NCBI GenBank assembly: GCA_963695555.1
Contig: CAVOGR010000002.1
Span: 64,001 to 128,000, forward strand
Length of the DNA stretch: 64,000 nucleotides
From: an uncultured Gemmatimonadales bacterium
GTDB taxonomy: Bacteria; Gemmatimonadota; Gemmatimonadetes; Gemmatimonadales; GWC2-71-9
Reading direction: 5' to 3'
Shown: one piece after another, positions 27,703 through 55,109 of the stretch
How positions within the stretch are numbered: the stretch's first letter is position 1
Layout: each line of letters starts with the position of its first letter
The notes under the pieces: generated by a model
Database searches by the model: none
Told to the model about the DNA's origin: nothing
Seen by the model: the letters and a program-made list of their open reading frames with translations, nothing else
Translations under genes and position numbers: made by a program

Positions 27703-29277
27703 ATGAGATCCTGGGGTAAGCGGCTCGAAGGGGCGGCATTTCGGGTCCTGTCCCGGGCCGACGCCTTCATGAACCGGCTCTACACCTGGCGCTTCAATCC
27801 GCTCTATCACAGCGGGGCGCTGGTGGTGGTGCTGTTCATCGCGGTGACTGTGACCGGGATCTATCTGCTTTTTTTCTATCGGGTTAGCGCGCCATACCAG
27901 TCGATTGCCAGGCTCCAGGACCAGGTCTGGTTGGGACGCTGGATTCGTTCGTTCCACCGCTATGCCTCCGACGCGGCGGTGGTTGCGGCCTTGGTTCACG
28001 CCTTCCGGGTATTCGCCCAAGGTCGCAGCTGGGGGCCCCGCACCCTGGCCTGGGTCAGTGGGGTGGCCCTGCTCTCCGTTACCCTGATCTGCGGCTGGAC
28101 CGGCTACGTCATGGTTTGGGACGAACAGGGCCTGGTCCTGGCCCGGGAGGGCGCCCGGTTCCTCGATGCCCTCCCCTTGTTCTCGGAGCCCATCAGCCGG
28201 GCATTCGTGGGCGACCGGCTGATCCCGAACGCGTTCTTCTTTCTGAATCTCTTCCTGCACGTCGCACTTCCGATCGGGATCGGCGTCGTGCTGTGGCTCC
28301 ACGTCTCGCGCGTGGCCAGAGCCGCGCTCCTGCCACCGCGCGCCCTGAGCTGGGCGGTCCTGGGCCTGCTGCTCGGACTCTCGGTCCTCTGGCCCGCCGC
28401 CCTCGGACCGGCGGCCGACTTGTTTCGATTGCCGCAACGAGCGCCGTTCGATCTGTTCTACTCAGGCTGGCTCCCGCTCACCAGGAATCTGTCGGCCGGT
28501 CTGGTCTGGCTCGTGGGTGGCACACTCGCCGCGATCTTCGTGGCCACCCCATGGTGGATCGGCGGCCGCAGCCGACGCGTCGAGTCGATGCAGCCCTCCT
28601 TCGTGGTCCAGCGGCTCTGCGATGCCTGCCGAACGTGCTATCTGGATTGCCCCTACGAAGCGATCGACATGGTGGCGCGTACTGACGGGCGCCCCGGTCT
28701 CGTCGCCCGCGTCGATCCGGCGCTCTGCGTCAGCTGCGGTATTTGCGCCGGGTCGTGCGCCCCGATGGGGGTCGGGCCCCCAAAGCGAACGGGCCGATAC
28801 CAGGTCGCCGCCGTCGAGCAGTTCATCGCCGACCACACGCTCGGCTCGGACGACGTCGTGATCATTGGCTGTTCCTTCGGCGCCGGGAACGTCACTCGAG
28901 GGACAACGTTCGACGGTGCATGTATCTTTCCGGTCGACTGCGCCGGGAGCATGCATACCTCGGTGGTGGAGTACCTGGTGCGGTCAGGCGTGGGTGGGGT
29001 GTTGATCGTATCTTGCCCCCCACGCGATTGCTGGCATCGCGAAGGCCCCAAGTGGCTGGAACAGCGGCTCTATCACGGTAGAGAGGCCGAGCTCAAGGAG
29101 CGGGTCGACCGGCGGCGCATCAGGCTGGCGCACGCCGGGCTCGCGGAACCATACCTCGTTCGGCAGGTGTTGGCTGAGTTCCGCCGTGAGCTGGCCGCGC
29201 TCGAAGTGGCCAGCGCGGAAGAGGATATCGCGCTGAGTATCGAGTGCGCGGCACCGGTAGAAGAGGTCGAGTCGTGA
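27703..29277 (+). CDS. Fusion of a cytochrome b N-terminal domain, a 2x[4Fe-4S] ferredoxin and an MvhD/FlpD-like domain
   Basis: Heme His pairs SFHRY..LVHA and FLHV..WLHV; CDACRTC..CP and CVSCGIC..C; IGC, DCAGS, SCPPRDCWHREG. Confidence 0.82.
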   Translation: MRSWGKRLEGAAFRVLSRADAFMNRLYTWRFNPLYHSGALVVVLFIAVTVTGIYLLFFYRVSAPYQSIARLQDQVWLGRWIRSFHRYASDAAVVAALVHAFRVFAQGRSWGPRTLAWVSGVALLSVTLICGWTGYVMVWDEQGLVLAREGARFLDALPLFSEPISRAFVGDRLIPNAFFFLNLFLHVALPIGIGVVLWLHVSRVARAALLPPRALSWAVLGLLLGLSVLWPAALGPAADLFRLPQRAPFDLFYSGWLPLTRNLSAGLVWLVGGTLAAIFVATPWWIGGRSRRVESMQPSFVVQRLCDACRTCYLDCPYEAIDMVARTDGRPGLVARVDPALCVSCGICAGSCAPMGVGPPKRTGRYQVAAVEQFIADHTLGSDDVVIIGCSFGAGNVTRGTTFDGACIFPVDCAGSMHTSVVEYLVRSGVGGVLIVSCPPRDCWHREGPKWLEQRLYHGREAELKERVDRRRIRLAHAGLAEPYLVRQVLAEFRRELAALEVASAEEDIALSIECAAPVEEVES

Positions 29278-34955: not shown

Positions 34956-35825
34956 TCAGGAGCGCTCGATGCGCACCCGGGGCCTATCCATGCGTCCCGG
35001 GTCAACCGAGCGATTGCGCCAAACGGGCTCGTCCGGAGAATCCGGCACCGTCATGCTGATGGTCTGACGGCGCTGCTTTCGCATGATCGCAAGCTCTACG
35101 GTCTCTCCTTGCTCGTACGAGCCGAGGATGCGCATCGCGTGTGACGGCGTCTTCGGCGTGCGGCCCGCAATGGAGAGGATCACATCGCCTGGCTTCAGGC
35201 TGAGCTCCGACCCTTCCGCCACACTCACCACCAGGAGCCCTTCCTTGGCGGCGAAATACTCGCCGAGGTCGGGATTCAGGCTCACCAACTCGAGCCCGCC
35301 CCATCGGCCGGTGCCGAAGAACTCAAAGTTGAGGTCGCGCGGCATAAAGCGGAACTCGTTCATTCCGCGCTGGAGGCGCTCCATATCCGGCATCCGGAAC
35401 GAGAAGGTGTTCCCCATGTCCTCCGCCTCGAGCGTCGCCTTCTGGCTCTTCGCACCGCGGCGGTACTCGATCTCCACCTTGTCTCCCGGATCGAGCTTCC
35501 GGGCCAGCTCGACCAACTTCATGCCCGGGCCAGACGCGTTCTCATCGTCAGCCTTGACCCCGGCCAGGGCGGTGCCGTTGAACTTGGTGATGATGTCGCC
35601 GGCCTCGAGCCCAGCCTTGTCCGCTGGTCCGTCCGGCACCACCGATTCGACTTCGGCGCCGATCTTGTCCCGAGCCATGTCGGCCCGGGTGTTGACCATC
35701 ACCCCGATCCGCCCCCGGCCGGCGCCGAACGCGAAGACCCTGAGATCCCGGTCCTGTGCCTGTGCCAGACCCACGGGGACGGTAAGGAGGAGCGCGAGCG
35801 CTCCAAAGAGCCACTGTCGTTTCAT
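34956..35825 (-). CDS. Secreted double-PDZ domain protein
   Basis: Signal peptide; GPADKAGLEAGDII and LKPGDVILSI PDZ motifs; no protease domain. Confidence 0.82.
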   Translation of the reverse strand: MKRQWLFGALALLLTVPVGLAQAQDRDLRVFAFGAGRGRIGVMVNTRADMARDKIGAEVESVVPDGPADKAGLEAGDIITKFNGTALAGVKADDENASGPGMKLVELARKLDPGDKVEIEYRRGAKSQKATLEAEDMGNTFSFRMPDMERLQRGMNEFRFMPRDLNFEFFGTGRWGGLELVSLNPDLGEYFAAKEGLLVVSVAEGSELSLKPGDVILSIAGRTPKTPSHAMRILGSYEQGETVELAIMRKQRRQTISMTVPDSPDEPVWRNRSVDPGRMDRPRVRIERS

Positions 35826-36092
35826 GAGTGAGTATCTCCCTTTTGTGGTACTTGGCTTCTAGTGGTAGGGATTCGGGAGGGGGCCGGATGGTCGCACGGA
35901 AAGGACGTAGGAGGGTAGGGACGTAGGAGTGTGGGACTACAGGCCGGGGCCGATCTTGGTCCCTACTTCCCACCAGCCTACTGCCCTACCTCCTCCCACA
36001 GTCTCTCCCACCCGTTTCAGGCCGGGTTAGATTTCCCACCATTCCCCCTGTCACTTGCTACAGAGCGCTCAGCTCTGCGAGGAGACTGCCCC

Positions 36093-36635
36093 ATGCGTGC
36101 CGCCGTCGAACGGCTCTGGCCCGAGCTCGAGTGGATCGAGGACCCAGGCCTCAGGGAGCAGACCACCCAAACCTGGACTACCGCGTTCGAGCGGAGCCCG
36201 CTCGAGCCCGACGACTTGAACGAGATCCCCTTCACGCTGCTCGTCCCGAATTGTCCGGCCACGTTCATGGAGCACAAGCGGTGCGTGGTCCACATTGCGC
36301 GCGCGGGGGCTAGGGCCATGCAGGAATTCATGGGAACCTCGCTCACAATCGACCTGGATACGGTCATCGCCGGCGCCATCCTGGCCGACGTGGGCAAGCT
36401 CCTGGAGTACGAGAAGGTCGGCGGGAAGGCCGTCCAGAGCGACCGTGGGAAGAACCTCCGGCACCCGTTCACCGGTGTGGCGCTCGCAATGGAGTGCGGC
36501 GTGCCGGAAGCGGTCTGCCATATCATCGCGGCCCACGCCGGCGAGGGCGACCTGGTCAAGCGCAGCACCGAGGCGATCATCGTCCACCACGCGGACTTCA
36601 TGGCCTACCTGCCGTTCAAGAACCTGTCTCGCTGA
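36093..36635 (+). CDS. HD/HDIG-fold protein with a non-canonical motif (LAD instead of LHD)
   Basis: EHKRCV, GAILADVGKLLEY, RHPFTG, HIIAAH, HHADF; GGAG RBS. Confidence 0.82.
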   Translation: MRAAVERLWPELEWIEDPGLREQTTQTWTTAFERSPLEPDDLNEIPFTLLVPNCPATFMEHKRCVVHIARAGARAMQEFMGTSLTIDLDTVIAGAILADVGKLLEYEKVGGKAVQSDRGKNLRHPFTGVALAMECGVPEAVCHIIAAHAGEGDLVKRSTEAIIVHHADFMAYLPFKNLSR

Positions 36636-36653
36636 CCAAGCGGAGAGAGACAT

Positions 36654-38031
36654 ATGCCGGACACCATCACCGCCACCATGGCCCGCTGGGCCTCCGACCT
36701 CACGTTCGACGACATCGGCGCCCAGGCCGTGCACGAGGCGAAGCGATACCTGCTGGATTCCCTGGGCTGCGCCTTCGGCGGCTTCCGCCAGGAAGACGCG
36801 CGGATCGCCATGGAGGTGCTCGACGAGGTCGGCGGGAAGGGACCGGCCACCATCCTCGGCAGCGGGAAGCGCACCGACCCTGTCACCGCGTCGCTCGCCA
36901 ATGCGCTGATGGTCCGGGTGATGGACTACAACGACATCTACTGGCAGCAAGATCCGTCGCACCCCTCGGACATCATTCCCGCTGCGATCGCCTGCGGCGA
37001 ACGGGCCGCAAGGAAGCGGCACAGACCTCGTCGTCGGCATCGTGCTGGGACATGAATTCGAGATGCGGATGTGCGAGGCTGCCTTCCCGGGCATCCGCGA
37101 GCGCGGCTGGCACCACGCGACACTCACCGCGTTCGTCTCGCCCATCGTCGCCGGACGCATGCTCGGCCTTCCGTGGGACAAGATCCAGCACGCGATCGGG
37201 ATCTCGGCTTCACGCCATGCCACCCTCGGGGCAGTGACCGCGGGCAAGCTCACCATGATGAAGAACACGGTCGACCCCATGGCCACCCAGTCGGGAGTGC
37301 TGGCGGCGCTCCTGGCCGAGAAGGGGTACACCGGCCCCGAGCACGTGATCGATGGGAAGGAAGGGCTGGCGCATTGCTTCGGGCCCGAGTGGAAGCTCGA
37401 CGTGCTGGTGGATGGGCTGGGCGATGCCTGGCGGATCGAGCGGTGCGGCATGAAGGCTTTTCCTACCGAGGCCCTCACCCACACCCCAATCTCGGCCGTG
37501 CTCGACATCGTGCACGCGAACGACCTGAAACCCGATGACATCGAGCAAGTCCACATCCGGTCACTGGCACGCGCGGCGGACATCCTCGCCGACCCGTCGA
37601 AATACGATCCGCGCACCAAGGAAACCGCCGATCACAGCCTCCCCTACGTGATCGCCGCCGCGATCGCGGATGGACAGGTGACGCCCGCGCAATTCGAAGC
37701 CGACAAGATCATGGATCCGATCATCCGCGCGCAGCTGAATAAGGTGAAGGTGGTGGCCGATCCGGAGATCGAAGCTGTCTTCCCCAAGCTTCAGCGCGTG
37801 ATCGTCACCGTGACGACCACCGACGGGCGCGAACTGACCAAGCAGCTGGATTACCCCAAGGGAGACCCGCGGAATCCGCTCACCGACCAGGAAGTCGAAG
37901 AGAAATTCGACGCCCTTGCGGGTCCAGTGCTCTCAAAAGGCGCGCGGGCCAAGCTCAAGCAGGCGGTATGGGATCTCGAGAAGCAGAAGTCGATTTCGAA
38001 GCTCATGGCTCTCTGCACCACTGACCGGTAG
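36654..38031 (+). pseudogene. MmgE/PrpD family dehydratase with a frameshift near 37010 (possibly a sequencing error)
   Basis: N-half: LLDSLGC, DYNDIY, HPSDII. C-half: GWHHAT, ETADHSLPY, PKGDPRNP. The two halves join after a 1-nt shift at about 37005-37015. Confidence 0.82.
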
Positions 38032-38048
38032 CCCACTCGGAGACGACG

Positions 38049-39995
38049 ATGGGTCAGACGATCACGGAGAAGATCGCGCAGCAGTACATGACCGAAGGCC
38101 CGGCCCGGCCGCTCCGTCCGGGTGACGTCATCTCGCTTCGGCCACGGCACGTGCTCACGCACGACAACACCGCGGCGGTCATGAAGAAGTTCCGGGCGAT
38201 TGGCGCAGACCGGGTCTTCGATCCCAGGCAACCGGTCTTTGCGCTGGATCACGATATCCAAAACACCTCCGAGACCAATCTCGCGAAGTACGCCGAGATC
38301 GAGGCCTTTGCCGCGGAGCACGGCGTCGATTTCTATCCGGCCGGCACCGGCATCAGCCACCAGGTGATGGTGGCGCACGGGTACGTAGTTCCAGGCTCAC
38401 TGGTCGTGGGTTCGGATTCCCACTCCAACATGTACGGAGCGCTCGGGGCGTTGGGCACACCGGTGGTGCGGACCGACGCGGCTGCCATCTGGGCCACAGG
38501 CGAGTTCTGGTGGCAGGTGCCGCGCACCGTCCGCGTGGTGCTCGAGGGCACGCTCCGGAAGGGTGTGACTGGAAAGGACGTGATCGTTATGCTGTGCGGG
38601 CTCTACAACCAGGGCGAGGTGCTGAACGCCATCGTCGAGTTCGCCGGCCCGGGCGTCGCCAGCCTGAGCGCCGACGCCCGCATGACTATCGCCAACATGA
38701 CGACCGAATGGGGCGCGCTCGCCGGATGGTTCCCGATAGATGCGGTCACGATCACCTACCTGAAGTCCCGAAAGAAGATCATCGAGGCGGCGGGAAGCTC
38801 CCGATTCACCGACGACGACCTCACCGCTTGGGCAACCAACCCGCCCGCACCCGATCCGGACGCGGCCTATGCCGGTGAGATCGTACTCGACCTGGCAACC
38901 GTGAGCCCACACGTGTCGGGGCCCGACACGGTGCAGGTCATGCGCTCGGTGGCGGACATCGAGCGCGACAAGATTGCGATCCAAAAGGCCTACCTGGTCA
39001 GCTGCGTCAACAGTCGGCTCGAGGATCTCGAGGCGGCGGCCCGAGTTATTGAGGGCAAGAAGGTGGCCCCCAGCGTGGACTTCTACGTGGCCGCTGCGAG
39101 CAAGGAGGTGCAGGATCGAGCCGAGGCGTCGGGTGCATGGGGCACGCTGCTCGCGGCGGGCGCCCATCCGCTGCCGCCCGGATGCGGGCCCTGCATCGGG
39201 CTCGGCGTGGGGCTCCTCGAGCCAGGCGAGGTCGGGATCTCAGCCACAAACCGGAACTTCAAGGGCCGCATGGGCTCCCGAGAGGCGCAGGCGTACCTCG
39301 GCAGTCCGGCTGTCGTCGCTGCTTCGGCGGTGGCGGGCTACATCACCGGCCCCGGCCCCTCCTATGGCGGGCAGCCGGAGAAGCGGTTCGTCGAGTCGGC
39401 CGAGCGGGCGCGGGCGCCTGAACGGGTCGATATCCTCAACGGCTTCCCCGAGCGTCTCAGCGGCCGGCTGGTGTTCGTCCCGCAGGACAACCTGAACACC
39501 GATGGGATCTACGGGAAGGACTACACCTACCGCGAGGACATGACCGCGGAGCAGATGGCCGAGGTCGTGATGGAGAATTACGATCCCGCCTTTGCCGGCC
39601 GGACCGCCGCGGGCGACGTGTTGGTCGGCGGGTGGAACTTCGGCACCGGGTCGAGCCGGGAGCAGGCGGCGACGGCGCTCAAGGCGAAGGGAATCGCGCT
39701 GGTGATCGCCGGGAGTTTCTCGCAGACGTATCTTCGAAACGCCTACAACAACGGCTTCGTCTGCATCGAGTGTCCCGAGCTCGTGAAACGGCTGAAGCAC
39801 CAGCACGAACCGGCGATGGCAGCCGGCGAGCTGACGATCGTCCCCGGTGATCAGATCGAGGTGGACTTCGCCAACGGGACCATCGCACACAGTGGCGCCG
39901 AGTACGGCTTTGCGGCACTCGGCTCAGTACCCCAATCGCTCGTCGTGGCGGGCGGGGTCGAGAACCTCGTCCGACGACGGTTGGGCCTCGGCTAA
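38049..39995 (+). CDS. lysF: Single-chain homoaconitase-like aconitase (fungal Lys4/LysF type)
   Basis: THDN, LDHDIQN, SDSHSNMYG, VRTDAAAIWATG..WWQ; Fe-S Cys in SCVNSR and GCGPCIG; fused swivel domain NFGTGSSREQA. Confidence 0.78.
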   Translation: MGQTITEKIAQQYMTEGPARPLRPGDVISLRPRHVLTHDNTAAVMKKFRAIGADRVFDPRQPVFALDHDIQNTSETNLAKYAEIEAFAAEHGVDFYPAGTGISHQVMVAHGYVVPGSLVVGSDSHSNMYGALGALGTPVVRTDAAAIWATGEFWWQVPRTVRVVLEGTLRKGVTGKDVIVMLCGLYNQGEVLNAIVEFAGPGVASLSADARMTIANMTTEWGALAGWFPIDAVTITYLKSRKKIIEAAGSSRFTDDDLTAWATNPPAPDPDAAYAGEIVLDLATVSPHVSGPDTVQVMRSVADIERDKIAIQKAYLVSCVNSRLEDLEAAARVIEGKKVAPSVDFYVAAASKEVQDRAEASGAWGTLLAAGAHPLPPGCGPCIGLGVGLLEPGEVGISATNRNFKGRMGSREAQAYLGSPAVVAASAVAGYITGPGPSYGGQPEKRFVESAERARAPERVDILNGFPERLSGRLVFVPQDNLNTDGIYGKDYTYREDMTAEQMAEVVMENYDPAFAGRTAAGDVLVGGWNFGTGSSREQAATALKAKGIALVIAGSFSQTYLRNAYNNGFVCIECPELVKRLKHQHEPAMAAGELTIVPGDQIEVDFANGTIAHSGAEYGFAALGSVPQSLVVAGGVENLVRRRLGLG

Positions 39996-40063
39996 TACAA
40001 CCGCGTCCGATCGATCAACAATGAAGACAACCCGCCGGCGGAGCCCCGCCGACAGAGGACAAC

Positions 40064-41251
40064 ATGGCTAAGTACACGGTGGTATCGATGCCCGGCGACG
40101 GCATCGGCAAGGTGGTTCTTCCCGAGGCGGTGCGCGTGCTCGACGCGATCGGGTTCGACGCGGCATACGTGCATGCCGACATCGGGTGGGATTTCTGGAT
40201 CAACGACGGGAACCCGCTCCCTGACAAGACCATCCAGCTGCTCGATCGCCACAAACTCGGCCTGTTCGGCGCCATTACCTCCAAGCCCAAGGGCCTCGCG
40301 ACCAAGGAACTCAAGCCGGAATTGCGCGACAAGGGGTTGGTGTATTTCAGCCCGATCGTCGCCATGCGCCAGCGATTCAACCTAGACGTGTGTATCCGGC
40401 CCTGCCGGTCGTTCCCCGGCAACCCGCTCAACTTCATCCGACAGATGGCAGGCGGCGGCTTCGAGGAGCCGAAGGTAGACGCGGTGATCTTCCGACAAAA
40501 TACCGAGGGATTGTACGCCGGCATCGAGTGGACCGACCCGCCCGAGCAGGTTCGTCAGGCGTTGGCCACCCACCCGAAATTCAAGCGATTTGCCTCCACG
40601 CCTGGACCCGACTTGGCGATCTCCACTCGGGTGTTTACCCGGAACGCGTGTCGACGAATTGTCACGGCGGCATTCGAGTATGCCAAACGCCACGGCTACA
40701 AGTCCGTGACGGTCTGCGAGAAGCCCAACGTGCTCCGCGAGACGTCGGGCATGATGGAGGACGTGGCCGCACAGGTGAAGCAGGGCTTTCCGGACATCCA
40801 GCTCTGGTCCACCAACATCGATGCCCAGATGATGTGGCTCACCAAGAACCCGGAAGACTACGGGGTCATCGTCGCGGGCAATATGTTCGGTGACATCATC
40901 TCCGACGGTTTTGCCGGGCTGGTCGGCGGCCTGGGATTCGCCTGCTCGGGTAACATCGGTGACGAAGTGGCGGTGTTCGAGCCGACCCATGGGTCGGCGC
41001 CCAAGTACCAGCAGCTCGATCCGCCGATCGTGAATCCGATCGCGATGATCTTGAGCGCGGCCATGCTGCTCGACCACGTCGGCGAGACCGACCGGGCCAC
41101 ACGGGTGCGCAACGCCGTTGGCGCGGTGGTCAAGGCTGGGAAGGTGCGCACCTACGACATGCTGCGCCTGGCCGGCGGGCAGGACGTGTTTTCCAAGGGA
41201 GCGGCGACGACCACCCAGGTGGGCGACGCCATCATCCAGCAGCTGAAATAG
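40064..41251 (+). CDS. Isocitrate/isopropylmalate/homoisocitrate dehydrogenase family protein
   Basis: PGDGIG, RQNTEGLY, NMFGDIISD, FEPTHGSAP, NPIAMILS. Confidence 0.9.
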   Translation: MAKYTVVSMPGDGIGKVVLPEAVRVLDAIGFDAAYVHADIGWDFWINDGNPLPDKTIQLLDRHKLGLFGAITSKPKGLATKELKPELRDKGLVYFSPIVAMRQRFNLDVCIRPCRSFPGNPLNFIRQMAGGGFEEPKVDAVIFRQNTEGLYAGIEWTDPPEQVRQALATHPKFKRFASTPGPDLAISTRVFTRNACRRIVTAAFEYAKRHGYKSVTVCEKPNVLRETSGMMEDVAAQVKQGFPDIQLWSTNIDAQMMWLTKNPEDYGVIVAGNMFGDIISDGFAGLVGGLGFACSGNIGDEVAVFEPTHGSAPKYQQLDPPIVNPIAMILSAAMLLDHVGETDRATRVRNAVGAVVKAGKVRTYDMLRLAGGQDVFSKGAATTTQVGDAIIQQLK

Positions 41252-41262
41252 CGAGGTACCCG

Positions 41263-42495
41263 GTGGCGACTCGGAAACGTGCACGGTCCTCCCGCCACGG
41301 GCAGGCAGGCCGCCGCGGCGATGATGTACGCTCGGATCTGTTCGTCTCGGCGACGATCGCGCCGTCCGGAGGTACCCGCATCCGGCTGGCATCGAAGGTC
41401 GAGTCGTTCTACGGAGACTCGATTCGCGAGACCGTCGACGGCGTGCTCACGAGCCTCGGCGTGCGGCATGCCACGGTGCAGATCGAGGACCAGGGTGCGG
41501 TGCCGTTCGTCATAGCCGCCCGAGTGGAGGCAGCGCTGCGGCGGGCCGGGGCCGGTGGTCGCGGCGGAGATGCACGGCCGGAACGCACCGTCGTTCGCGC
41601 CGGACCCACGGCGCGCGACCGGCTCCGCCGCTCGCGGCTCTATCTGCCCGGCAACGAGCCCAAGTTCATGCTCAATGCCGGCATCCACCGCCCGGACGCG
41701 ATCATTCTCGATCTCGAGGACTCGGTCCATCCCAACGACAAGGATACCGCACGGCTCCTGGTCCGAAACGCCCTCCGGTGCGTGGATTTCATGGGCGCCG
41801 AGCGCATGGTTCGAATCAACCAGCTCCCGCTCGGGCTCGACGATCTCGACGCCATTGTGCCGGAAGACCCGGACCTGATCCTCATCCCCAAGACCGAACA
41901 CGCCGATCAGGTGCGGCAGGTGCACGACCACATCGCCGAATTGCGCAACGCAGGTGGCGATGGTCATCCCGTCTGGCTGATGCCGATCTTGGAATCGGCA
42001 CTCGGCGTGGAGCACGCGCACGAGATCGGAACGGCTGCCGACACCGTCGTCGCCCTCACCATCGGGCTCGAGGACTACACCGCCGACCTCGGCGTGCCCA
42101 AGACCCTGGCCGGTACGGAATCTTCCTACGCCCGGACGCGCTTGGTGAACGCGGCGCGGGCGGCAGGGGTGCAGGCCATCGATTCCGTCTTCGGCGACGT
42201 TGGCGACATGGACGGGCTCGCCGCCTGGGCGGAGCGCTCCCGCGGGCTCGGCTTCGAGGGCATGGGCTGCATTCACCCGCGGCAGATCGAGCCGATTCAC
42301 CGGGCCTTCGCGCCGACGGCTGAGGAGATCGAGAAGGCGCAGAAGATCGTGGCCGCGTTCGAGGAGGCCGACCGGAAGGGGCTGGGCGTCGTGAGCCTCG
42401 GCACCCGGATGGTCGATCCCCCGGTCGTCAAGCGGGCGCAGCGGCTCATCGCGACGGCGCGCCAGGCCGGCCTGATTCCCGGGAGTACCCCATGA
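41263..42495 (+). CDS. citE: Citrate lyase ACP (CitD)-lyase beta subunit (CitE) fusion
   Basis: N-terminal AG..RSD and IEDQGAVPFVIAARVEAA (CitD-like). C-terminal RRSRLYLPG, LDLEDSV, PILESA, GLEDYTADL, IHPRQ, MVDPP. Confidence 0.85.
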   Translation: MATRKRARSSRHGQAGRRGDDVRSDLFVSATIAPSGGTRIRLASKVESFYGDSIRETVDGVLTSLGVRHATVQIEDQGAVPFVIAARVEAALRRAGAGGRGGDARPERTVVRAGPTARDRLRRSRLYLPGNEPKFMLNAGIHRPDAIILDLEDSVHPNDKDTARLLVRNALRCVDFMGAERMVRINQLPLGLDDLDAIVPEDPDLILIPKTEHADQVRQVHDHIAELRNAGGDGHPVWLMPILESALGVEHAHEIGTAADTVVALTIGLEDYTADLGVPKTLAGTESSYARTRLVNAARAAGVQAIDSVFGDVGDMDGLAAWAERSRGLGFEGMGCIHPRQIEPIHRAFAPTAEEIEKAQKIVAAFEEADRKGLGVVSLGTRMVDPPVVKRAQRLIATARQAGLIPGSTP

Positions 42496-44099
42496 CGCCG
42501 CGCACACGACGGACGCCGAAACGGGCGACCAAGACCACCCCGGAGTTCGTGGTGAACGCGGCGGGACGGCGCGTTCCCACCATGGTGAACGGACAGCCGC
42601 AGGTTCCTTATAAGGGTGTCGGCAAGTACCGGCCAACCGGCGCCAAGCACGGACCGCCCATCGCGTCCTGCGCCGATTACCCGATGAGCGGCGACAAGCG
42701 GGTGAAGGGGGGGGACCTCGCGACCGCGCTCAAGCGGTGTGGCCTGCGTGACGGCATGGTGATCTCGACCCATCATCATTTGCGAAACGGCGACCGGATC
42801 GCACTCCAGGCGCTCCAAGCTGCGGCCAAGCTCGGCGTCAAAGATCTCGTTTGGCTGCCCAGCGCCTCGTTCCCTTGCCACGAGCCCGTGATCGACCTGA
42901 TGAAGGCCGGCGTGGTTCATCATATCGAAGGCAGCATGAACGGGCCGCTCGGCGAGTACTGCTCACGCGGCAAGATGCGCGGCTTGGGCGTGCTCCGCTC
43001 CCATGGCGGGCGGTGGCAGGCGATTCAGGACGGCGAGATCAAGATCGACATAGCGGTCATCGCGGCACCGACGGCCGACGCATTCGGCAACGCCGACGGC
43101 TCACACGGGCCATCAGCGTGCGGTTCGTTGGGATTCGCGCTGGCCGATTCGATGTACGCCGACCGCGTGATCGTGGTCACGGACAACCTGGTGCCCTTCC
43201 CCTGTATCCCGTGGCAGATCCAAGGCAACAACGTGGACTGCGTGGTTGAGGTCGACTCGATCGGCGACCCGTCGCTGATCGTCTCCGGCACCACCGAGAT
43301 TACCAAGAGCCCCGATCGCCTGCTGATCGCGGAATATGTGGCGCGATTCATCCAGGCCGCCGGCATCATGCGAGACGGATTCTCGTTCCAGGCCGGGGCC
43401 GGCGGCATTGCGCTCGCGTTCACCCAGTTCCTCAAGGAGATGATGAAAGCGGAAGGAGTTCGGGCCCGCTTCGTCCGCGGCGGGTCGACCCAGTACCTGG
43501 TCGACCTGCTGAATGAGGGTCTGACGGATTACATCCTGGATGGCCAGACCTTTGACTTGGCCGGCGTCGCGTCGATCGGATCCAATCCGCGGCACGTGCC
43601 CACGTCACCGTTTACGTCGTACAACTTCCACGGCAAGGGCAACTTCGCCTCCCTGGTCGATGCGGCAGTCCTCGGCGCGACCGAGGTGGACATCGACTTC
43701 AACGCCAACGTCGTCACCCACTCCGACGGCCTCTTGCTGCACGGAATCGGCGGCTGGCAGAATTGCCTCTTCAGCGGGTGTACCATCCTCGCGGTTCCGG
43801 CCTTTCGGGACAGGATCCCAGTGATCGTGAATGAGGTCACCACCGTCACGGGCCCGTCCGAGCTGATCGATGTCGTGGTGACCGAGCGTGGCATTGCGAT
43901 CAACCCGCGCCGGAAGGATCTCGTGAAAGCGACCCGCCATTCCGGACTCCCCATTCGCCCGATCGCAGAGATCAAGGCGGAGGTCGAAGCGATCGTCGGC
44001 GGCCCGCCCCAACCTCCTGCCCTGCTCGAGCGCCCGGTGGCGGTGATCAAGTGGGTCGACGGCACGCTGTTGGATACCGTCTGGCAGGTGGCGCAATAG
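42492..44099 (+). CDS. citF: Citrate lyase alpha subunit/CoA-transferase
   Basis: GLRDGMVISTHHHLRNGD, RSHGGR, CGSLGFA, FSFQAGAGG, LGATEVD..FNANV, DVVVTERGIAINP. Confidence 0.9.
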   Translation: MTPRTRRTPKRATKTTPEFVVNAAGRRVPTMVNGQPQVPYKGVGKYRPTGAKHGPPIASCADYPMSGDKRVKGGDLATALKRCGLRDGMVISTHHHLRNGDRIALQALQAAAKLGVKDLVWLPSASFPCHEPVIDLMKAGVVHHIEGSMNGPLGEYCSRGKMRGLGVLRSHGGRWQAIQDGEIKIDIAVIAAPTADAFGNADGSHGPSACGSLGFALADSMYADRVIVVTDNLVPFPCIPWQIQGNNVDCVVEVDSIGDPSLIVSGTTEITKSPDRLLIAEYVARFIQAAGIMRDGFSFQAGAGGIALAFTQFLKEMMKAEGVRARFVRGGSTQYLVDLLNEGLTDYILDGQTFDLAGVASIGSNPRHVPTSPFTSYNFHGKGNFASLVDAAVLGATEVDIDFNANVVTHSDGLLLHGIGGWQNCLFSGCTILAVPAFRDRIPVIVNEVTTVTGPSELIDVVVTERGIAINPRRKDLVKATRHSGLPIRPIAEIKAEVEAIVGGPPQPPALLERPVAVIKWVDGTLLDTVWQVAQ

Positions 44100-44113
44100 C
44101 GGGAAGGCGTGGC

Positions 44114-44932
44114 TCAGCGAGTCGGGCCGATGCCCTGGTAGCGCAGGTTCCGGGTTCCGTCGGGGTTGTGGACGTAGTGCAGTGACAAGTCGCGCGCGAT
44201 ATCGGGCGCGGATTCCATGGCGAACGCCGTTGGGATGAACTCGAACTTGGCGTAATGCTCGCCGTCCCGCGTCCTCACGAAGTAGATACCGCCATCAGAT
44301 CCAAAGTCGAGCTCGGCGGTAGCTGCGTACCCGTCCGCCGGAGCGGTGTCGGTATAGATGAGGAACATGTTGTCGACGCCCAGCTCTTCTCGTGAGACGA
44401 ATCGGATGCCGCCGGCTCCGGATACTCGGAGCCGCATGTTTCCCCTCGACCCAGGCTCGACGGATTCCGGGAAGATGTCGGCATTGTCTGCAGTGGTCGC
44501 GAGCCGGCGCGTCGCGAAGTCCCAGCCGTAATAGCTCCCGTCGGTCTTCTGTCCCAGCCTGAGGAACCCACTGGGCAGCGCCTTCAGACCTTCGATTCGC
44601 TGCTTGAGGCGGATGCGAACCTCAGCGTTTCGGGGATACCACGACTGGAACCGCTGGTAGCCCTGATGCTCCACCCAGAGATTGACGCTGCTGCCGTGCC
44701 GATACCCGATGGTGAACGCACCCACGGAATCGGTTGTGGTGAAGGTTGAGTAATCCTTGTCCCACACCAGGCTCCCATTGCTCAAGCCCCAGCCATGCTG
44801 GGCGGCGCGGATGGTGGCACCCTCGATGGGCCGGTCGGTCTCGAAGTCCGTTGCCGTGCCGGAGACGTGCTTCTCGGTTAAGCATCCGGCCAGGCTCAAC
44901 GCCACCGGGATCACAAGGCTGAAAGCCTTCAT
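44114..44932 (-). CDS. Hypothetical lipoprotein with a carboxypeptidase-regulatory-like domain
   Basis: Lipobox LAGC; PIEGATI..TTTDSVGAF; start moved to ATG 44932. Confidence 0.7.
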   Translation of the reverse strand: MKAFSLVIPVALSLAGCLTEKHVSGTATDFETDRPIEGATIRAAQHGWGLSNGSLVWDKDYSTFTTTDSVGAFTIGYRHGSSVNLWVEHQGYQRFQSWYPRNAEVRIRLKQRIEGLKALPSGFLRLGQKTDGSYYGWDFATRRLATTADNADIFPESVEPGSRGNMRLRVSGAGGIRFVSREELGVDNMFLIYTDTAPADGYAATAELDFGSDGGIYFVRTRDGEHYAKFEFIPTAFAMESAPDIARDLSLHYVHNPDGTRNLRYQGIGPTR

Positions 44933-44964
44933 ACGTTGCCCCTTCCCTTCGAACAAGGTAACCA

Positions 44965-45023
44965 GGCCAATCTTGACAATGTCAAGATTGGCCATATCTT
45001 CCTTATCTTGACGTCGTCAAGAT
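44965..45023. promoter_or_regulatory. Twin palindromic operators ATCTTGAC-N3-GTCAAGAT
   Basis: 29-bp palindrome at 44965-44993 and 19-bp palindrome at 45005-45023 in a divergent intergenic region. Confidence 0.8.
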
Positions 45024-46697: not shown

Positions 46698-46805
46698 CCC
46701 GCCTTCTTGACGCTCCGGATACTCGGGTGGAGTATTGGAATGCTCCGACCCTGTGTCATCAGAGTCAGAGCCGTGTCTGTTTGTCCCGAAGTCAGGAGGT
46801 GCTGT

Positions 46806-48359
<1,554 letters not shown>

Positions 48360-48362
48360 GCG

Positions 48363-48782
48363 ATGCCGCAGGCCGAGCCTTCAGTTCCAGGAAATGTGGC
48401 ACGCGTCGTCATCACCGATGCGGCAGAGGCCGTGTTGCGCCAGCTCGTGGCGCAACACGGCCCGCTCCTCTTTCATCAGTCGGGGGGCTGTTGCGACGGC
48501 AGCTCTCCGATGTGCTATCCCAGGGACGAGTTTCGCATTGGCCAGCGGGACGTGCTACTCGGCGACGTCGACGGCACACCGTTCTATATCGGCGCCGAGC
48601 AGTTCGAAGTCTGGCAACACACCCAGCTCGTGATCGACGTCGTGCCGGGCCGTGGTTCCGGCTTTTCGCTCGAGGCGCCCTTAGGTGTCCGGTTTCTCAC
48701 CCGTTCACGGGTGTTCGATCCGGACGAACAGGCCTGGCTCGACGGCTGTCCGCCCAGGCGAGGGCCGGACCCGGGCTCCTAG
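48363..48782 (+). CDS. DUF779 family protein
   Basis: FHQSGGCCDGSSPMCY, GRGSGFSLE; usual partner of AldB-type genes. Confidence 0.9.
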   Translation: MPQAEPSVPGNVARVVITDAAEAVLRQLVAQHGPLLFHQSGGCCDGSSPMCYPRDEFRIGQRDVLLGDVDGTPFYIGAEQFEVWQHTQLVIDVVPGRGSGFSLEAPLGVRFLTRSRVFDPDEQAWLDGCPPRRGPDPGS

Positions 48783-53563: not shown

Positions 53564-54934
53564 TTACGGCCAGATCCCTCGCGCCGCCGTGACCCGGGCC
53601 ACCCGCTGGACCGCCAGGATGTAGGCCGCTGTTCTGAGATTTACCGGCTCGAGTTTAGCTCCGTCCCCCAGATTCCTCGTCTTCCGCTCGGCTCCGATTT
53701 GACCGAGGGACTCGTTGATCTTCCGCTGGGTCTCGATCACGGCGTCGGTGGCCGTGTTCATCTTCCGGCGCAGCTTGGTGTTCACCGTGTCCAGGTCCCA
53801 CTGCTCGTTTTCGATATTCTGCACCCACTCGAAGTAGCTGACGGTAACACCGCCGGCATTGGCCAGAATGTCGGGCAGGACTGGGATGCCGCGCTCCATA
53901 AAGATGCGGTCGGCGGCAGGGGTGGTCGGACCATTGGCCGCCTCGACCACCAGATGCGTGCTGACGTCGCCGGCATTGTCCGACCGAAGCTCGTTCTCGA
54001 GTGCAGCTGGGATCAGGATGTCACATGGCAGTGCCAGGAGTTCCTCGTTGTTCACAGTGCGGGTACCGGCCAGCCCAACCACGGAGCCGGTCTTCCGCTT
54101 GTGCTCCTTGGCGGCCTTGTAATCCAAGCCGGCTTCGCGGTAGATCCCACCCTTCGAGTCGCTGACCGCCACCACCTTGGCCCCCGCGTCGGTGAATTCC
54201 TGTGCCGCGATGGCACCGGCGTTGCCGAAGCCCTGGATCACGACGGTGGCGTCCTTCACGCTCTTCCGTCCCGGAACGACGCCCAGCTCCAGCGCCCGTT
54301 GGGTGCAGAACAACGCACCCCTCGCGGTGGCCTCATTTCGGCCACGCGACCCTCCGATGTCCAACGGCTTGCCGGTGACGACGGGAAGGTTGTTCTCTCC
54401 GGGATGCATCATTTGATACGTATCGTAGATCCACGCCATGGTCTCGGCGTTGGTGTTCACATCGGGCGCCGGGATATCGGTGTGGGGGCCGATGGTATCG
54501 CCCAGCTCCGCAATGAATCGCCGGGTGATCTTGCGCAGGTCGGACGTGGTGAGATTCTTGGGATTGCAAACCACACCGCCCTTGGCGCCGCCGAACGGCA
54601 CGTCGACCACCGCGCACTTCCAGGTCATCCACGACGCCAACGCGAGCACCTCGTCGGCCGTGACGCCGGGGTGATAGCGGATCCCACCCTTGCCCGGGCC
54701 GCGAACCCGATTGTGGATGGCCCGATAGCCCACGAAGTTGAGCACCTCACCGCTCTGGGTCTCGATCGGAAACTCCACCGCGATCAGGCGGTCGGGCCGC
54801 TTCAAGAATTCCACCATGCCGGCATCGAGCTCGGGGAGATAACGAACGGCCCCGTCGAACTGCGCCATGGCGATGTGAAAGGGATTGAGATCTTCCGCCT
54901 GCTCCGGCGGGGCTTCGAGAGTTTCAGGGGTCAT
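53564..54934 (-). CDS. gdhA: Glu/Leu/Phe/Val dehydrogenase (glutamate dehydrogenase type)
   Basis: GPGKGGIRY, MTWKCA, GGAKGG, DIPAPDVNT, VTGKP, QGFGNAG, EAANGP, SYFEWVQN; start could be 54946. Confidence 0.88.
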   Translation of the reverse strand: MTPETLEAPPEQAEDLNPFHIAMAQFDGAVRYLPELDAGMVEFLKRPDRLIAVEFPIETQSGEVLNFVGYRAIHNRVRGPGKGGIRYHPGVTADEVLALASWMTWKCAVVDVPFGGAKGGVVCNPKNLTTSDLRKITRRFIAELGDTIGPHTDIPAPDVNTNAETMAWIYDTYQMMHPGENNLPVVTGKPLDIGGSRGRNEATARGALFCTQRALELGVVPGRKSVKDATVVIQGFGNAGAIAAQEFTDAGAKVVAVSDSKGGIYREAGLDYKAAKEHKRKTGSVVGLAGTRTVNNEELLALPCDILIPAALENELRSDNAGDVSTHLVVEAANGPTTPAADRIFMERGIPVLPDILANAGGVTVSYFEWVQNIENEQWDLDTVNTKLRRKMNTATDAVIETQRKINESLGQIGAERKTRNLGDGAKLEPVNLRTAAYILAVQRVARVTAARGIWP

Positions 54935-55109
54935 CGGTACTCCCATGTCCAAGGGCGGCCTAGCTATTGAAGGCCAAGCCGACCGGTTTGTAGCGTTGTG
55001 TCTTCGGACTAGCGACTATACCGCCGAAAGGCGAAAGAAATTCTGAAGGCGACAGGAATTCTCCTAATTACTGGCGCCCCCCCCCGGGCCTCATCCGGCG
55101 ACCGCGCGC

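Follow-up and report, generated by a model that had tools for sequence, protein, structure and literature searches.

Six genes of an uncultured Gemmatimonadales bacterium, at positions 36093-44099 of the stretch of 64,000 nucleotides analysed here (the window, G000:C2:64001-128000), appear to form an operon for the interconversion of 2-oxoacids by way of homocitrate. The families of the encoded proteins, assigned with Pfam and NCBIfam, suggest the series acetate + 2-oxoglutarate ↔ homocitrate ↔ homoaconitate ↔ homoisocitrate ↔ 2-oxoadipate + CO2 + NADPH, a reading that we hold to be evenly poised between right and wrong. If it is right, a citrate-lyase-like enzyme would stand where known pathways use a synthase; literature searches found no earlier description of the operon or of the pathway. 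The source genome (3.57 Mb in 14 contigs) is rated 87% complete. The six genes are as follows.

36093..36635, + strand: HD-fold protein, 180 amino acids (PF01966, 28.9 bits; TIGR00277, 32.9 bits)
36654..38031, + strand: MmgE/PrpD-family enzyme, 458 amino acids once corrected (Pfam N and C domains in two frames)
38049..39995, + strand: Lys4-type homoaconitase-like single-chain Fe-S hydratase, 648 amino acids (TIGR00139, 747.7 bits)
40064..41251, + strand: beta-decarboxylating dehydrogenase, NADP-type, 395 amino acids, candidate homoisocitrate dehydrogenase (PF00180)
41263..42495, + strand: fusion of CitD (acyl carrier) and CitE (lyase beta), 410 amino acids (PF06857, residues 24-95; PF03328, residues 123-339)
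42492..44099, + strand: CitF-like acyl-ACP/CoA transferase (ACP, acyl carrier protein; lyase alpha), 535 amino acids (PF04223, 428 bits)

The genes are separated by 18, 17, 68 and 11 base pairs (bp), and the last two overlap by 4 bp. A first-pass annotation of the window had described six tightly packed co-directional genes, with which both positions and spacings agree, and it had named their co-conservation beforehand as a test of its reading. The genes are indeed kept together across phyla. A full-length orthologue of the aconitase-family gene, the third of the six, is present in 5 of 41 related genomes (a tally that includes the unpublished G018, which has none), and in all four orthologue-bearing relatives besides the source genome, G000, the six genes stand in identical order. 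A scan of one genome per species turned up 594 stretches encoding a relative, and the best 80 loci were analysed; these are the nearest relatives of the query, many of them on short contigs, and the shares found among them are not valid for the whole family. They come from Acidobacteriota, Gemmatimonadota, Bacteroidota, Ignavibacteriota, Calditrichota, Planctomycetota, Verrucomicrobiota and others. By tblastn, the HD gene and the dehydrogenase gene are each found in 62 of the 80, the PrpD-family gene in 58, CitDE in 46 and CitF in 45. The arrangement is far beyond chance, because the same genes adjoin the aconitase gene in most of these loci of other species.

Fifty-one of the loci are informative as to gene content, in that the contig extends at least 6 kb upstream and at least 6.5 kb downstream. 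The CitDE/CitF form of the cluster occupies 34 of these (33 with the full core, one with a partial core), while in 10 there is no lyase gene nearby, the aconitase gene being solitary in 5 of the 10. Gene order varies by phylum; in Ignavibacteriota, for example, it is dehydrogenase-HD-aconitase-PrpD-CitDE-CitF. Among 121 Phycisphaerae genomes searched with the HD protein, 3 were carriers.

The remaining 7 informative loci (4 with a full core, 3 with a partial one) may be the most telling. Here the strongest evidence is found that the step in which a citrate-like acid is split or formed belongs to the pathway, because two unrelated lyase systems join the same core. In 10 of the 80 loci, CitDE and CitF give way to genes like those of citryl-CoA synthetase (Ccs) and citryl-CoA lyase, that is, a pair resembling the beta and alpha subunits of succinyl-CoA synthetase and a gene of the citryl-CoA lyase family, fused in some loci. 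The 7 that are informative all belong to Planctomycetota or Verrucomicrobiota. At L076, L080, L082 and L096, genes with ATP-grasp_2, CoA-binding/ligase and citrate-synthase C-terminal domains lie directly upstream of HD-aconitase-dehydrogenase-PrpD, and the gene with the citrate-synthase C-terminal domain scores as a citryl-CoA lyase (NF004869, 269.9 bits against a cut-off of 212). The aconitases of the Ccs-form loci make up one well-supported clade in a quick tree, and the dehydrogenase motif SPIV is identical in the two forms.

Of the core enzymes, the aconitase-family protein is proposed, from its sequence, to act on homoaconitate and homoisocitrate. It passes the model for fungal homoaconitase, TIGR00139, well above the cut-off of 529.9 bits, as does its orthologue at the Planctomycetota locus L082 (734.8 bits), and it fails the aconitase models (373 bits for PRK07229, cut-off 612). 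Its large and small domains, PF00330 and then PF00694, are carried on a single chain, the Fe-S cysteines C319, C379 and C382 (SC...CGPC) are invariant in 26 aligned sequences, and all the motifs that the first-pass annotation had quoted, LDHDIQN, SDSHSNMYG and VRTDAAAIWATGEFWWQ, are found in the translation. The protein is 55% identical to one from an aphelid and 47% identical to one from Colletotrichum whose UniRef name is homoaconitate hydratase. The specificity loop, NTDGIY..YTY, is common to the window's hydratase and the eukaryotic homoaconitase homologues; written out as NTDGIYGKDYTYR, it is nearly identical in the homologues P0123 and P0127. The nearest solved structure is HacA of M. 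jannaschii (4KP2). In the quick, unfinished tree of 51 chosen rows, three rows from eukaryotes (P0127, P0163 and P0123) form the sister group of the entire bacterial clade, 27 rows, with a support of 83, under the mark of 95, and P0123, which is unnamed, joins Colletotrichum at full support. The passing score, the eukaryotic identities and this grouping bear out the likeness to Lys4 claimed for the protein. The position of the eukaryotic rows beside the bacterial operon hydratases also raises a question of its own, whether fungal Lys4 shares an origin with them or arose by transfer.

The dehydrogenase, judged by its residues, is of the NADP type and lacks the Asn115 of isocitrate dehydrogenase. 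It falls below every equivalog cut-off, its best NCBIfam match being AksF2 (262 bits against 540), and the top solved structures are those of the homoisocitrate dehydrogenase (HICDH) of T. thermophilus, 3ASJ and 1X0L. The motif FSPIV-x-(L/M)-RQ, preceded by an insert of 15 residues with many Lys and Arg, is invariant in 18 aligned orthologues drawn from loci of both lyase types. Asn115 of E. coli Icd, which together with Ser113 we take to contact the gamma-carboxylate of the substrate, is replaced by Ile in 18 of 18 aligned orthologues. The segments APKY and TYDMLR (TYDxxR) align to Lys344, Tyr345, Tyr391 and Arg395 of the E. coli enzyme, presumably the residues that bind NADP.

The lyase possesses the alpha, beta and gamma parts of citrate lyase (PF04223, PF03328 and PF06857), the gamma and beta parts being fused, but by its sequence it is not a classical citrate lyase. 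All three parts score under their equivalog cut-offs (citF 479 bits against 501.45, citE 271.4 against 443.4, citD 51.8 against 63.5). An N-terminal motif, AG..G.DVRSD, is conserved, and 10 of 11 inspected sequences, that of the window among them, keep its Ser. Ser24 of the CitD part, within VRSD, falls at position 15 of the citD model, in a register that is uncertain relative to Ser14 of E. coli CitD, which we take to be the serine that bears the prosthetic group. Searches of the window's own genome, at 87% completeness, found no CitC, CitG or CitX, and those of the carrier genomes G041-G044 no CitG or CitX. The conserved serine may still carry a group, or perhaps the lyase may use free CoA thioesters instead.

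The protein called a PrpD dehydratase by the first-pass annotation does belong to the MmgE/PrpD family; its closeness to PrpD itself did not hold. Its nearest solved structures are iminodisuccinate (IDS) epimerase (2HP3, 1e-38) and the cis-aconitate decarboxylases (IRG1/CAD), together spanning 1e-38 to 1e-27, with the structures of PrpD more distant (5MVI, 1.9e-16; 1SZQ, 3e-15). The two pieces of the protein score 45.7 and 44.2 bits, against a PrpD equivalog cut-off of 575, and E. coli PrpD as a query gave no tblastn match at 1e-5. The reaction proposed for the protein is the interconversion of homocitrate and homoaconitate.

The first-pass annotation, right as to the six families, had overlooked that this gene lies in two pieces in different frames (36654-37055; 37042-38031). 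An extra base near position 37008, introduced in assembly, probably accounts for the split, because three public runs lack a base at 37008 and the gene is intact, in a single frame, in four of four relatives (L013-L016). Contigs of the public runs X1, X2, X3 and X5 were placed on the operon region, X1 and X3 being RNA libraries. The letter at 37008 is missing from the contigs of X1 (depth 11.7 of 14.1), X2 (3.4 of 3.4) and X3 (2.5 of 2.5, in a contig of 283 nucleotides that is otherwise identical) and is kept in those of X5 (0 of 6.33 without it). One base fewer at that position yields an intact PrpD-family protein of 458 amino acids. The intact relatives and the base missing from X1, X3 and X2 likewise led us to reject a pseudogene. 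Elsewhere in the same genome, outside the window, the canonical icd (G000:C7:145112-146324) is also broken over two frames, and in the relative G002 there are frame breaks in CitDE and CitF (L013:13046-15821). Because of these cases, single-base indel errors seem common in such few-contig assemblies. The RNA-library contigs of X1 span 30 of the 30 bins of the region and bridge the PrpD/aconitase, aconitase/dehydrogenase, dehydrogenase/CitDE and CitDE/CitF junctions, a hint (RNA libraries such as X1 can contain DNA) that the operon is expressed.

The searches found no specific relative of the HD-fold protein. According to the alignment, its HD dyad is degenerate, the first His being absent: the residue that precedes D99 is A, I or C, never H, in 30 aligned sequences (Ala-Asp99 in the window), and in the same sequences H61, D89, D99, K102, E105, R123, H124, H143, H148, H165, H166 and D168 are invariant. 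The orthologues in the 62 loci are 36-82% identical across 61 near-full-length matches, and in most arrangements the HD gene adjoins that of the aconitase. An AlphaFold2 model (predicted local distance difference test, pLDDT, of 92) matches generic HD folds only, the best being YhaM (E 5.6e-5). By sequence, the only match among solved structures was a weak one, to YedJ, and an Atlas search gave only clusters labelled 'HD/metal-dependent phosphohydrolase'.

These parts can be assembled into a model. The CitF transferase and the CitD-CitE lyase would interconvert acetate + 2-oxoglutarate and homocitrate, the MmgE/PrpD-family enzyme would interconvert homocitrate and cis-homoaconitate, the Lys4-type hydratase, confined to the second half-step, would interconvert cis-homoaconitate and homoisocitrate, and the dehydrogenase would interconvert homoisocitrate and 2-oxoadipate + CO2 + NADPH. 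The whole would be a self-contained and freely reversible module for the 'homo' series of tricarboxylates and would cost no thioester energy. The combination of this core with the citryl-CoA synthetase/lyase-like set, as found in Planctomycetota and Verrucomicrobiota, would be equivalent in energy, acetate being replaced by acetyl-CoA + ADP + Pi. Since both lyase systems would thus conserve thioester energy, the module looks as if it were built to run near equilibrium.

The model also offers a reason for the PrpD-family enzyme. Citrate lyase is by its name the pro-3S enzyme, and citryl-CoA lyase likewise acts on the pro-S arm. Under the priority rules, the arm of (R)-homocitrate that derives from acetyl would correspond to the pro-R arm of citrate. 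A si-type lyase (one acting on the pro-S arm) working with 2-oxoglutarate would therefore form or require (S)-homocitrate, the enantiomer of what the synthase produces. Enzymes of the aconitase type would be unable to dehydrate (S)-homocitrate toward the acetyl-derived arm; an enzyme of the PrpD family would do so, as in the methylcitrate cycle. Because a si-type lyase would have this consequence, a PrpD-family enzyme would be needed in the operon. Such a division of labor has precedents. PrpD, of a family described as performing an unusual syn-elimination (PMC4720413), was shown to yield 2-methyl-cis-aconitate, whose double bond lies on the arm that comes from propionate, the acyl-derived arm of a si-synthase product, while the dehydration toward the oxaloacetate-derived arm by AcnD, of the aconitase type, is argued and not shown (PMC5690661). 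The homoaconitases of fungi and Thermus interconvert only homoaconitate and homoisocitrate, and it is aconitase that dehydrates (R)-homocitrate (PMC3556520).

A wider picture can be drawn, though as a whole it is rather doubtful. Hundreds of soil and sediment species may share a synthase-free and energy-neutral means of lengthening or shortening 2-oxoacids through (S)-homocitrate. Its enzymes would be a si-type lyase (of the ACP type or the ATP/CoA type, interchangeably), a dehydratase of the PrpD family, a hydratase of the Lys4 type and a dehydrogenase using NADP, helped by a new kind of HD-fold protein, and fungal Lys4 would be closest in ancestry to the bacterial hydratase.

Several observations weigh against the route through homocitrate. 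The PrpD-family protein is nearer to epimerase and decarboxylases than to PrpD, and at two Gemmatimonadaceae loci, where the order is HD-aconitase-dehydrogenase-CitDE-CitF, no PrpD gene was found in the DNA covered (10 kb on each side at L030, 10 kb upstream and 5.1 kb downstream at L022). The citF score comes near its cut-off, and the families of CitE, CitF and citryl-CoA lyase are known for citrate. The dehydrogenase keeps Ser113 of E. coli Icd and has a Val aligned to Arg85 of T. thermophilus HICDH, a position that we take to be of note in that enzyme and whose R85V variant reportedly loses activity on isocitrate. We infer, moreover, both the si-type stereochemistry with 2-oxoglutarate and the (S)-homocitrate intermediate. 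Both ends of the route would favor cleavage at cellular concentrations, by our estimate from equilibrium constants, so that the net flow might go either way. The genomic context of lysine synthesis also counts on this side: the window's own genome, 87% complete, has LysA (445 bits, cut-off 297.9), LysW was not found in it, and no lysine-pathway genes adjoin the operon, either in the window or among the 68 proteins scanned from the flanks of 23 loci.

Because the genome has LysA and a single HMGL-like gene, and no LysW was found in it, lysine synthesis through the operon's route is unlikely in this organism, and nothing there supports the earlier suggestion of a synthase-free entry to the aminoadipate route. 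A lysine-biosynthetic context was in general set aside for the reasons already given. At L103, no LysW-type genes were found among 14 open reading frames run against NCBIfam; L104 was compared only with the operon proteins and a set of neighbor queries (E1, acyl-CoA dehydrogenase (ACAD), E2, Ccs/Ccl and two others). The genome does have a gene of the saccharopine dehydrogenase family, which is unlinked to the operon and ambiguous.

One might suppose instead that the substrates are those of the ordinary series, citrate ↔ cis-aconitate ↔ isocitrate ↔ 2-oxoglutarate + CO2, the module being a second branch, reversible, that serves citrate fermentation or an unconventional reductive tricarboxylic acid (TCA) cycle, with the PrpD-family enzyme supplying the citrate half-step. 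CitD, CitE, CitF and citryl-CoA lyase are after all citrate enzymes by name, E. coli PrpD dehydrates citrate, the dehydrogenase retains Ser113 and the NADP-binding residues of Icd, and genes for 2-oxoacid:ferredoxin oxidoreductase adjoin that of the dehydrogenase or the aconitase at L079, L069 and L103. Just such a role, citrate fermentation or an unconventional reverse TCA cycle, has been proposed for Ignavibacterium album, a cultured carrier of the lyase genes, in whose genome CitF and a CitE-CitD fusion (IALB_1146, IALB_1147) were noted; a search of the genome paper's text found no mention of aconitase or homoaconitase neighbors (PMC3362086). We nonetheless think the citrate series unlikely. 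The aconitase passes the homoaconitase model and falls far short of PRK07229, the Asn115 of Icd is replaced in every one of the 18 aligned orthologues, a full canonical set of enzymes exists in the same genome and no citrate carrier adjoins the operon. Citrate, furthermore, is symmetric, so that a separate enzyme for the acetyl arm would gain the cell nothing. Somewhat less likely again is the same chemistry on some other 2-oxoacid, whether pyruvate + acetate ↔ (S)-citramalate ↔ citraconate ↔ 3-methylmalate ↔ 2-oxobutyrate or repeated rounds leading to 2-oxopimelate or 2-oxosuberate, as in the Aks pathway of methanogens. The partly hydrophobic substrate pocket of the dehydrogenase (Ile, Val) would suit it, as would the best families for that protein, the multi-length AksF2 and AksF; the CitE part matches the citramalyl-CoA lyase RipC at 163.7 bits, and the citramalate lyase of Clostridium is built like citrate lyase. 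The hydratase, however, matches eukaryotic homoaconitase homologues in loop and sequence, not the isopropylmalate or citramalate isomerases, and the family scores for the alternatives all lie under their cut-offs.

There is lastly a very slight chance that the MmgE/PrpD-family protein works not as a dehydratase but as a decarboxylase or epimerase, like its nearest solved relatives, IDS epimerase and IRG1/cis-aconitate decarboxylases. A decarboxylase might make 2-methyleneglutarate from homoaconitate (compare itaconate), and the six genes would then not constitute one linear route. No genes for a CoA-transferase or hydratase of the itaconate type adjoin the operon, however, and without a dehydratase the lyase and the hydratase would be unconnected, yet the gene has been kept with both across phyla.

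Whatever its substrates, the operon is not the housekeeping TCA set, for which the same genome has canonical genes of its own: they encode a citrate synthase, an AcnA-like protein and a canonical Icd, the Icd being 65-76% identical to that of E. coli. That the operon's enzymes are distinct from these agrees with the first-pass annotation, the dehydrogenase and the lyase being below equivalog cut-offs, and the reading of the third and fourth genes as housekeeping aconitase and Icd is ruled out by the canonical genes. Five other genomes likewise have, besides the Lys4-like gene, a separate gene of the aconitase family with a higher score for Pfam Aconitase, in a frame of about 760 amino acids in 3 genomes and of 888 amino acids in 1, with a second gene of about 660 amino acids in G046.

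Several known systems share pieces with the operon. The upper alpha-aminoadipate pathway of fungi and Thermus resembles the operon in its Lys4-type hydratase, in an isomerisation split over two enzymes and in its beta-decarboxylating dehydrogenase. In the operon, however, a citrate-lyase-like system takes the place of homocitrate synthase, a PrpD-family enzyme takes that of the aconitase step, and the dehydrogenase has residues of the NADP type; the genome also differs in its lysine genes, as described above. With citrate lyase (CitDEF, EC 4.1.3.6, of Klebsiella and E. coli) the operon shares the alpha, beta and gamma parts, at 38% identity to E. coli CitE and 39% to CitF, but it differs in the fusion of CitD and CitE, the low model scores and the failure to find CitC, CitG or CitX in the genome. 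The 2-methylcitrate cycle (PrpC, PrpD, aconitase, PrpB) runs in a similar order, a si-type C-C enzyme followed by a PrpD-family enzyme acting on the acyl-derived arm and then a hydratase of the aconitase family; it ends, however, in a second lyase, whereas the operon ends in an oxidative decarboxylation, and the operon's PrpD-family member is distant from PrpD. The operon is, as the first-pass annotation had held, neither cit, prp nor lys. The citryl-CoA synthetase and lyase of Hydrogenobacter, like the ATP-citrate lyase of the reductive TCA cycle, have a counterpart in the set that replaces CitDE/CitF in the relatives from Planctomycetota and Verrucomicrobiota, but that set is absent from the window, and in the relatives it adjoins homoaconitase-like, PrpD-like and HD genes, not genes of the reductive TCA cycle. 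In the elongation of 2-oxoacids by methanogens (AksA, AksD/E, AksF) are found the best family matches of the dehydrogenase, AksF2 and AksF, and the solved structure nearest to the hydratase, HacA of M. jannaschii; the operon differs in having no AksA-type synthase, a single-chain hydratase and scores under the cut-offs.

In the window itself the genes that flank the operon are unrelated to it. Both are on the minus strand, a PDZ gene at 34956-35825 and, on the other side, a gene at 44114-44995 that belongs to no known family. No citrate carrier or cit regulator was found adjoining the operon, Rfam gave zero matches over positions 35000-45000, and a scan of the operon region for promoters and terminators gave nothing above the level of shuffled sequence. 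In other loci the neighbors vary. An acyl-CoA dehydrogenase gene is found at L080, L081, L096 and L083, thiolase genes at L090, L030 and L103, and genes for a 2-oxoacid dehydrogenase or ferredoxin oxidoreductase near the operons of L083, L070, L079, L069 and L103. Each type of neighbor occurs in few loci, and together they hint that a 2-oxoacid is passed to an acyl-CoA route. A region elsewhere in the source genome with genes for ACAD, EtfAB and an NAD-Icd-like protein (G000:C7:508000-527999) was considered and found to be unrelated to the operon.

A few other features were encountered along the way. In two Ignavibacteriota loci a gene for a PF05635 protein ('23S rRNA intervening sequence protein') lies within the cluster, directly upstream of the aconitase gene:

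L070:9486-9866: PF05635 gene
L079:9638-9943: PF05635 gene

Downstream of the operon in the window, at a distance of 2.6 kb, are a gene for an aldehyde dehydrogenase of 550 amino acids and then a DUF779 gene (46707-48782, + strand), and at 9.5 kb a gene for an amino acid dehydrogenase of the glutamate/leucine type (53564-54952, - strand). Upstream, at 27703-29277 (+ strand), lies an unusual fusion of 524 amino acids that joins cytochrome b, 4Fe-4S dicluster and FlpD-like (hydrogenase delta subunit) domains, near genes for COX1 and SCO1 on the opposite strand.

If the route through homocitrate is real, then citrate-lyase-type and citryl-CoA-lyase-type genes in the phyla concerned would not be markers of citrate fermentation or of a reductive TCA cycle. 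A new natural enantiomer of homocitrate would be predicted, and pathway engineering might gain an ATP-free C2 extension of 2-oxoacids. A function would be at hand for a widespread clade of the PrpD family and for a family of HD-fold proteins. Abundant and mostly uncultured Acidobacteriota, Gemmatimonadota, Ignavibacteriota, Verrucomicrobiota and Planctomycetota would possess a new route of central metabolism, one that joins 2-oxoglutarate and acetate to 2-oxoadipate, a node in the breakdown of lysine, glutarate and tryptophan.

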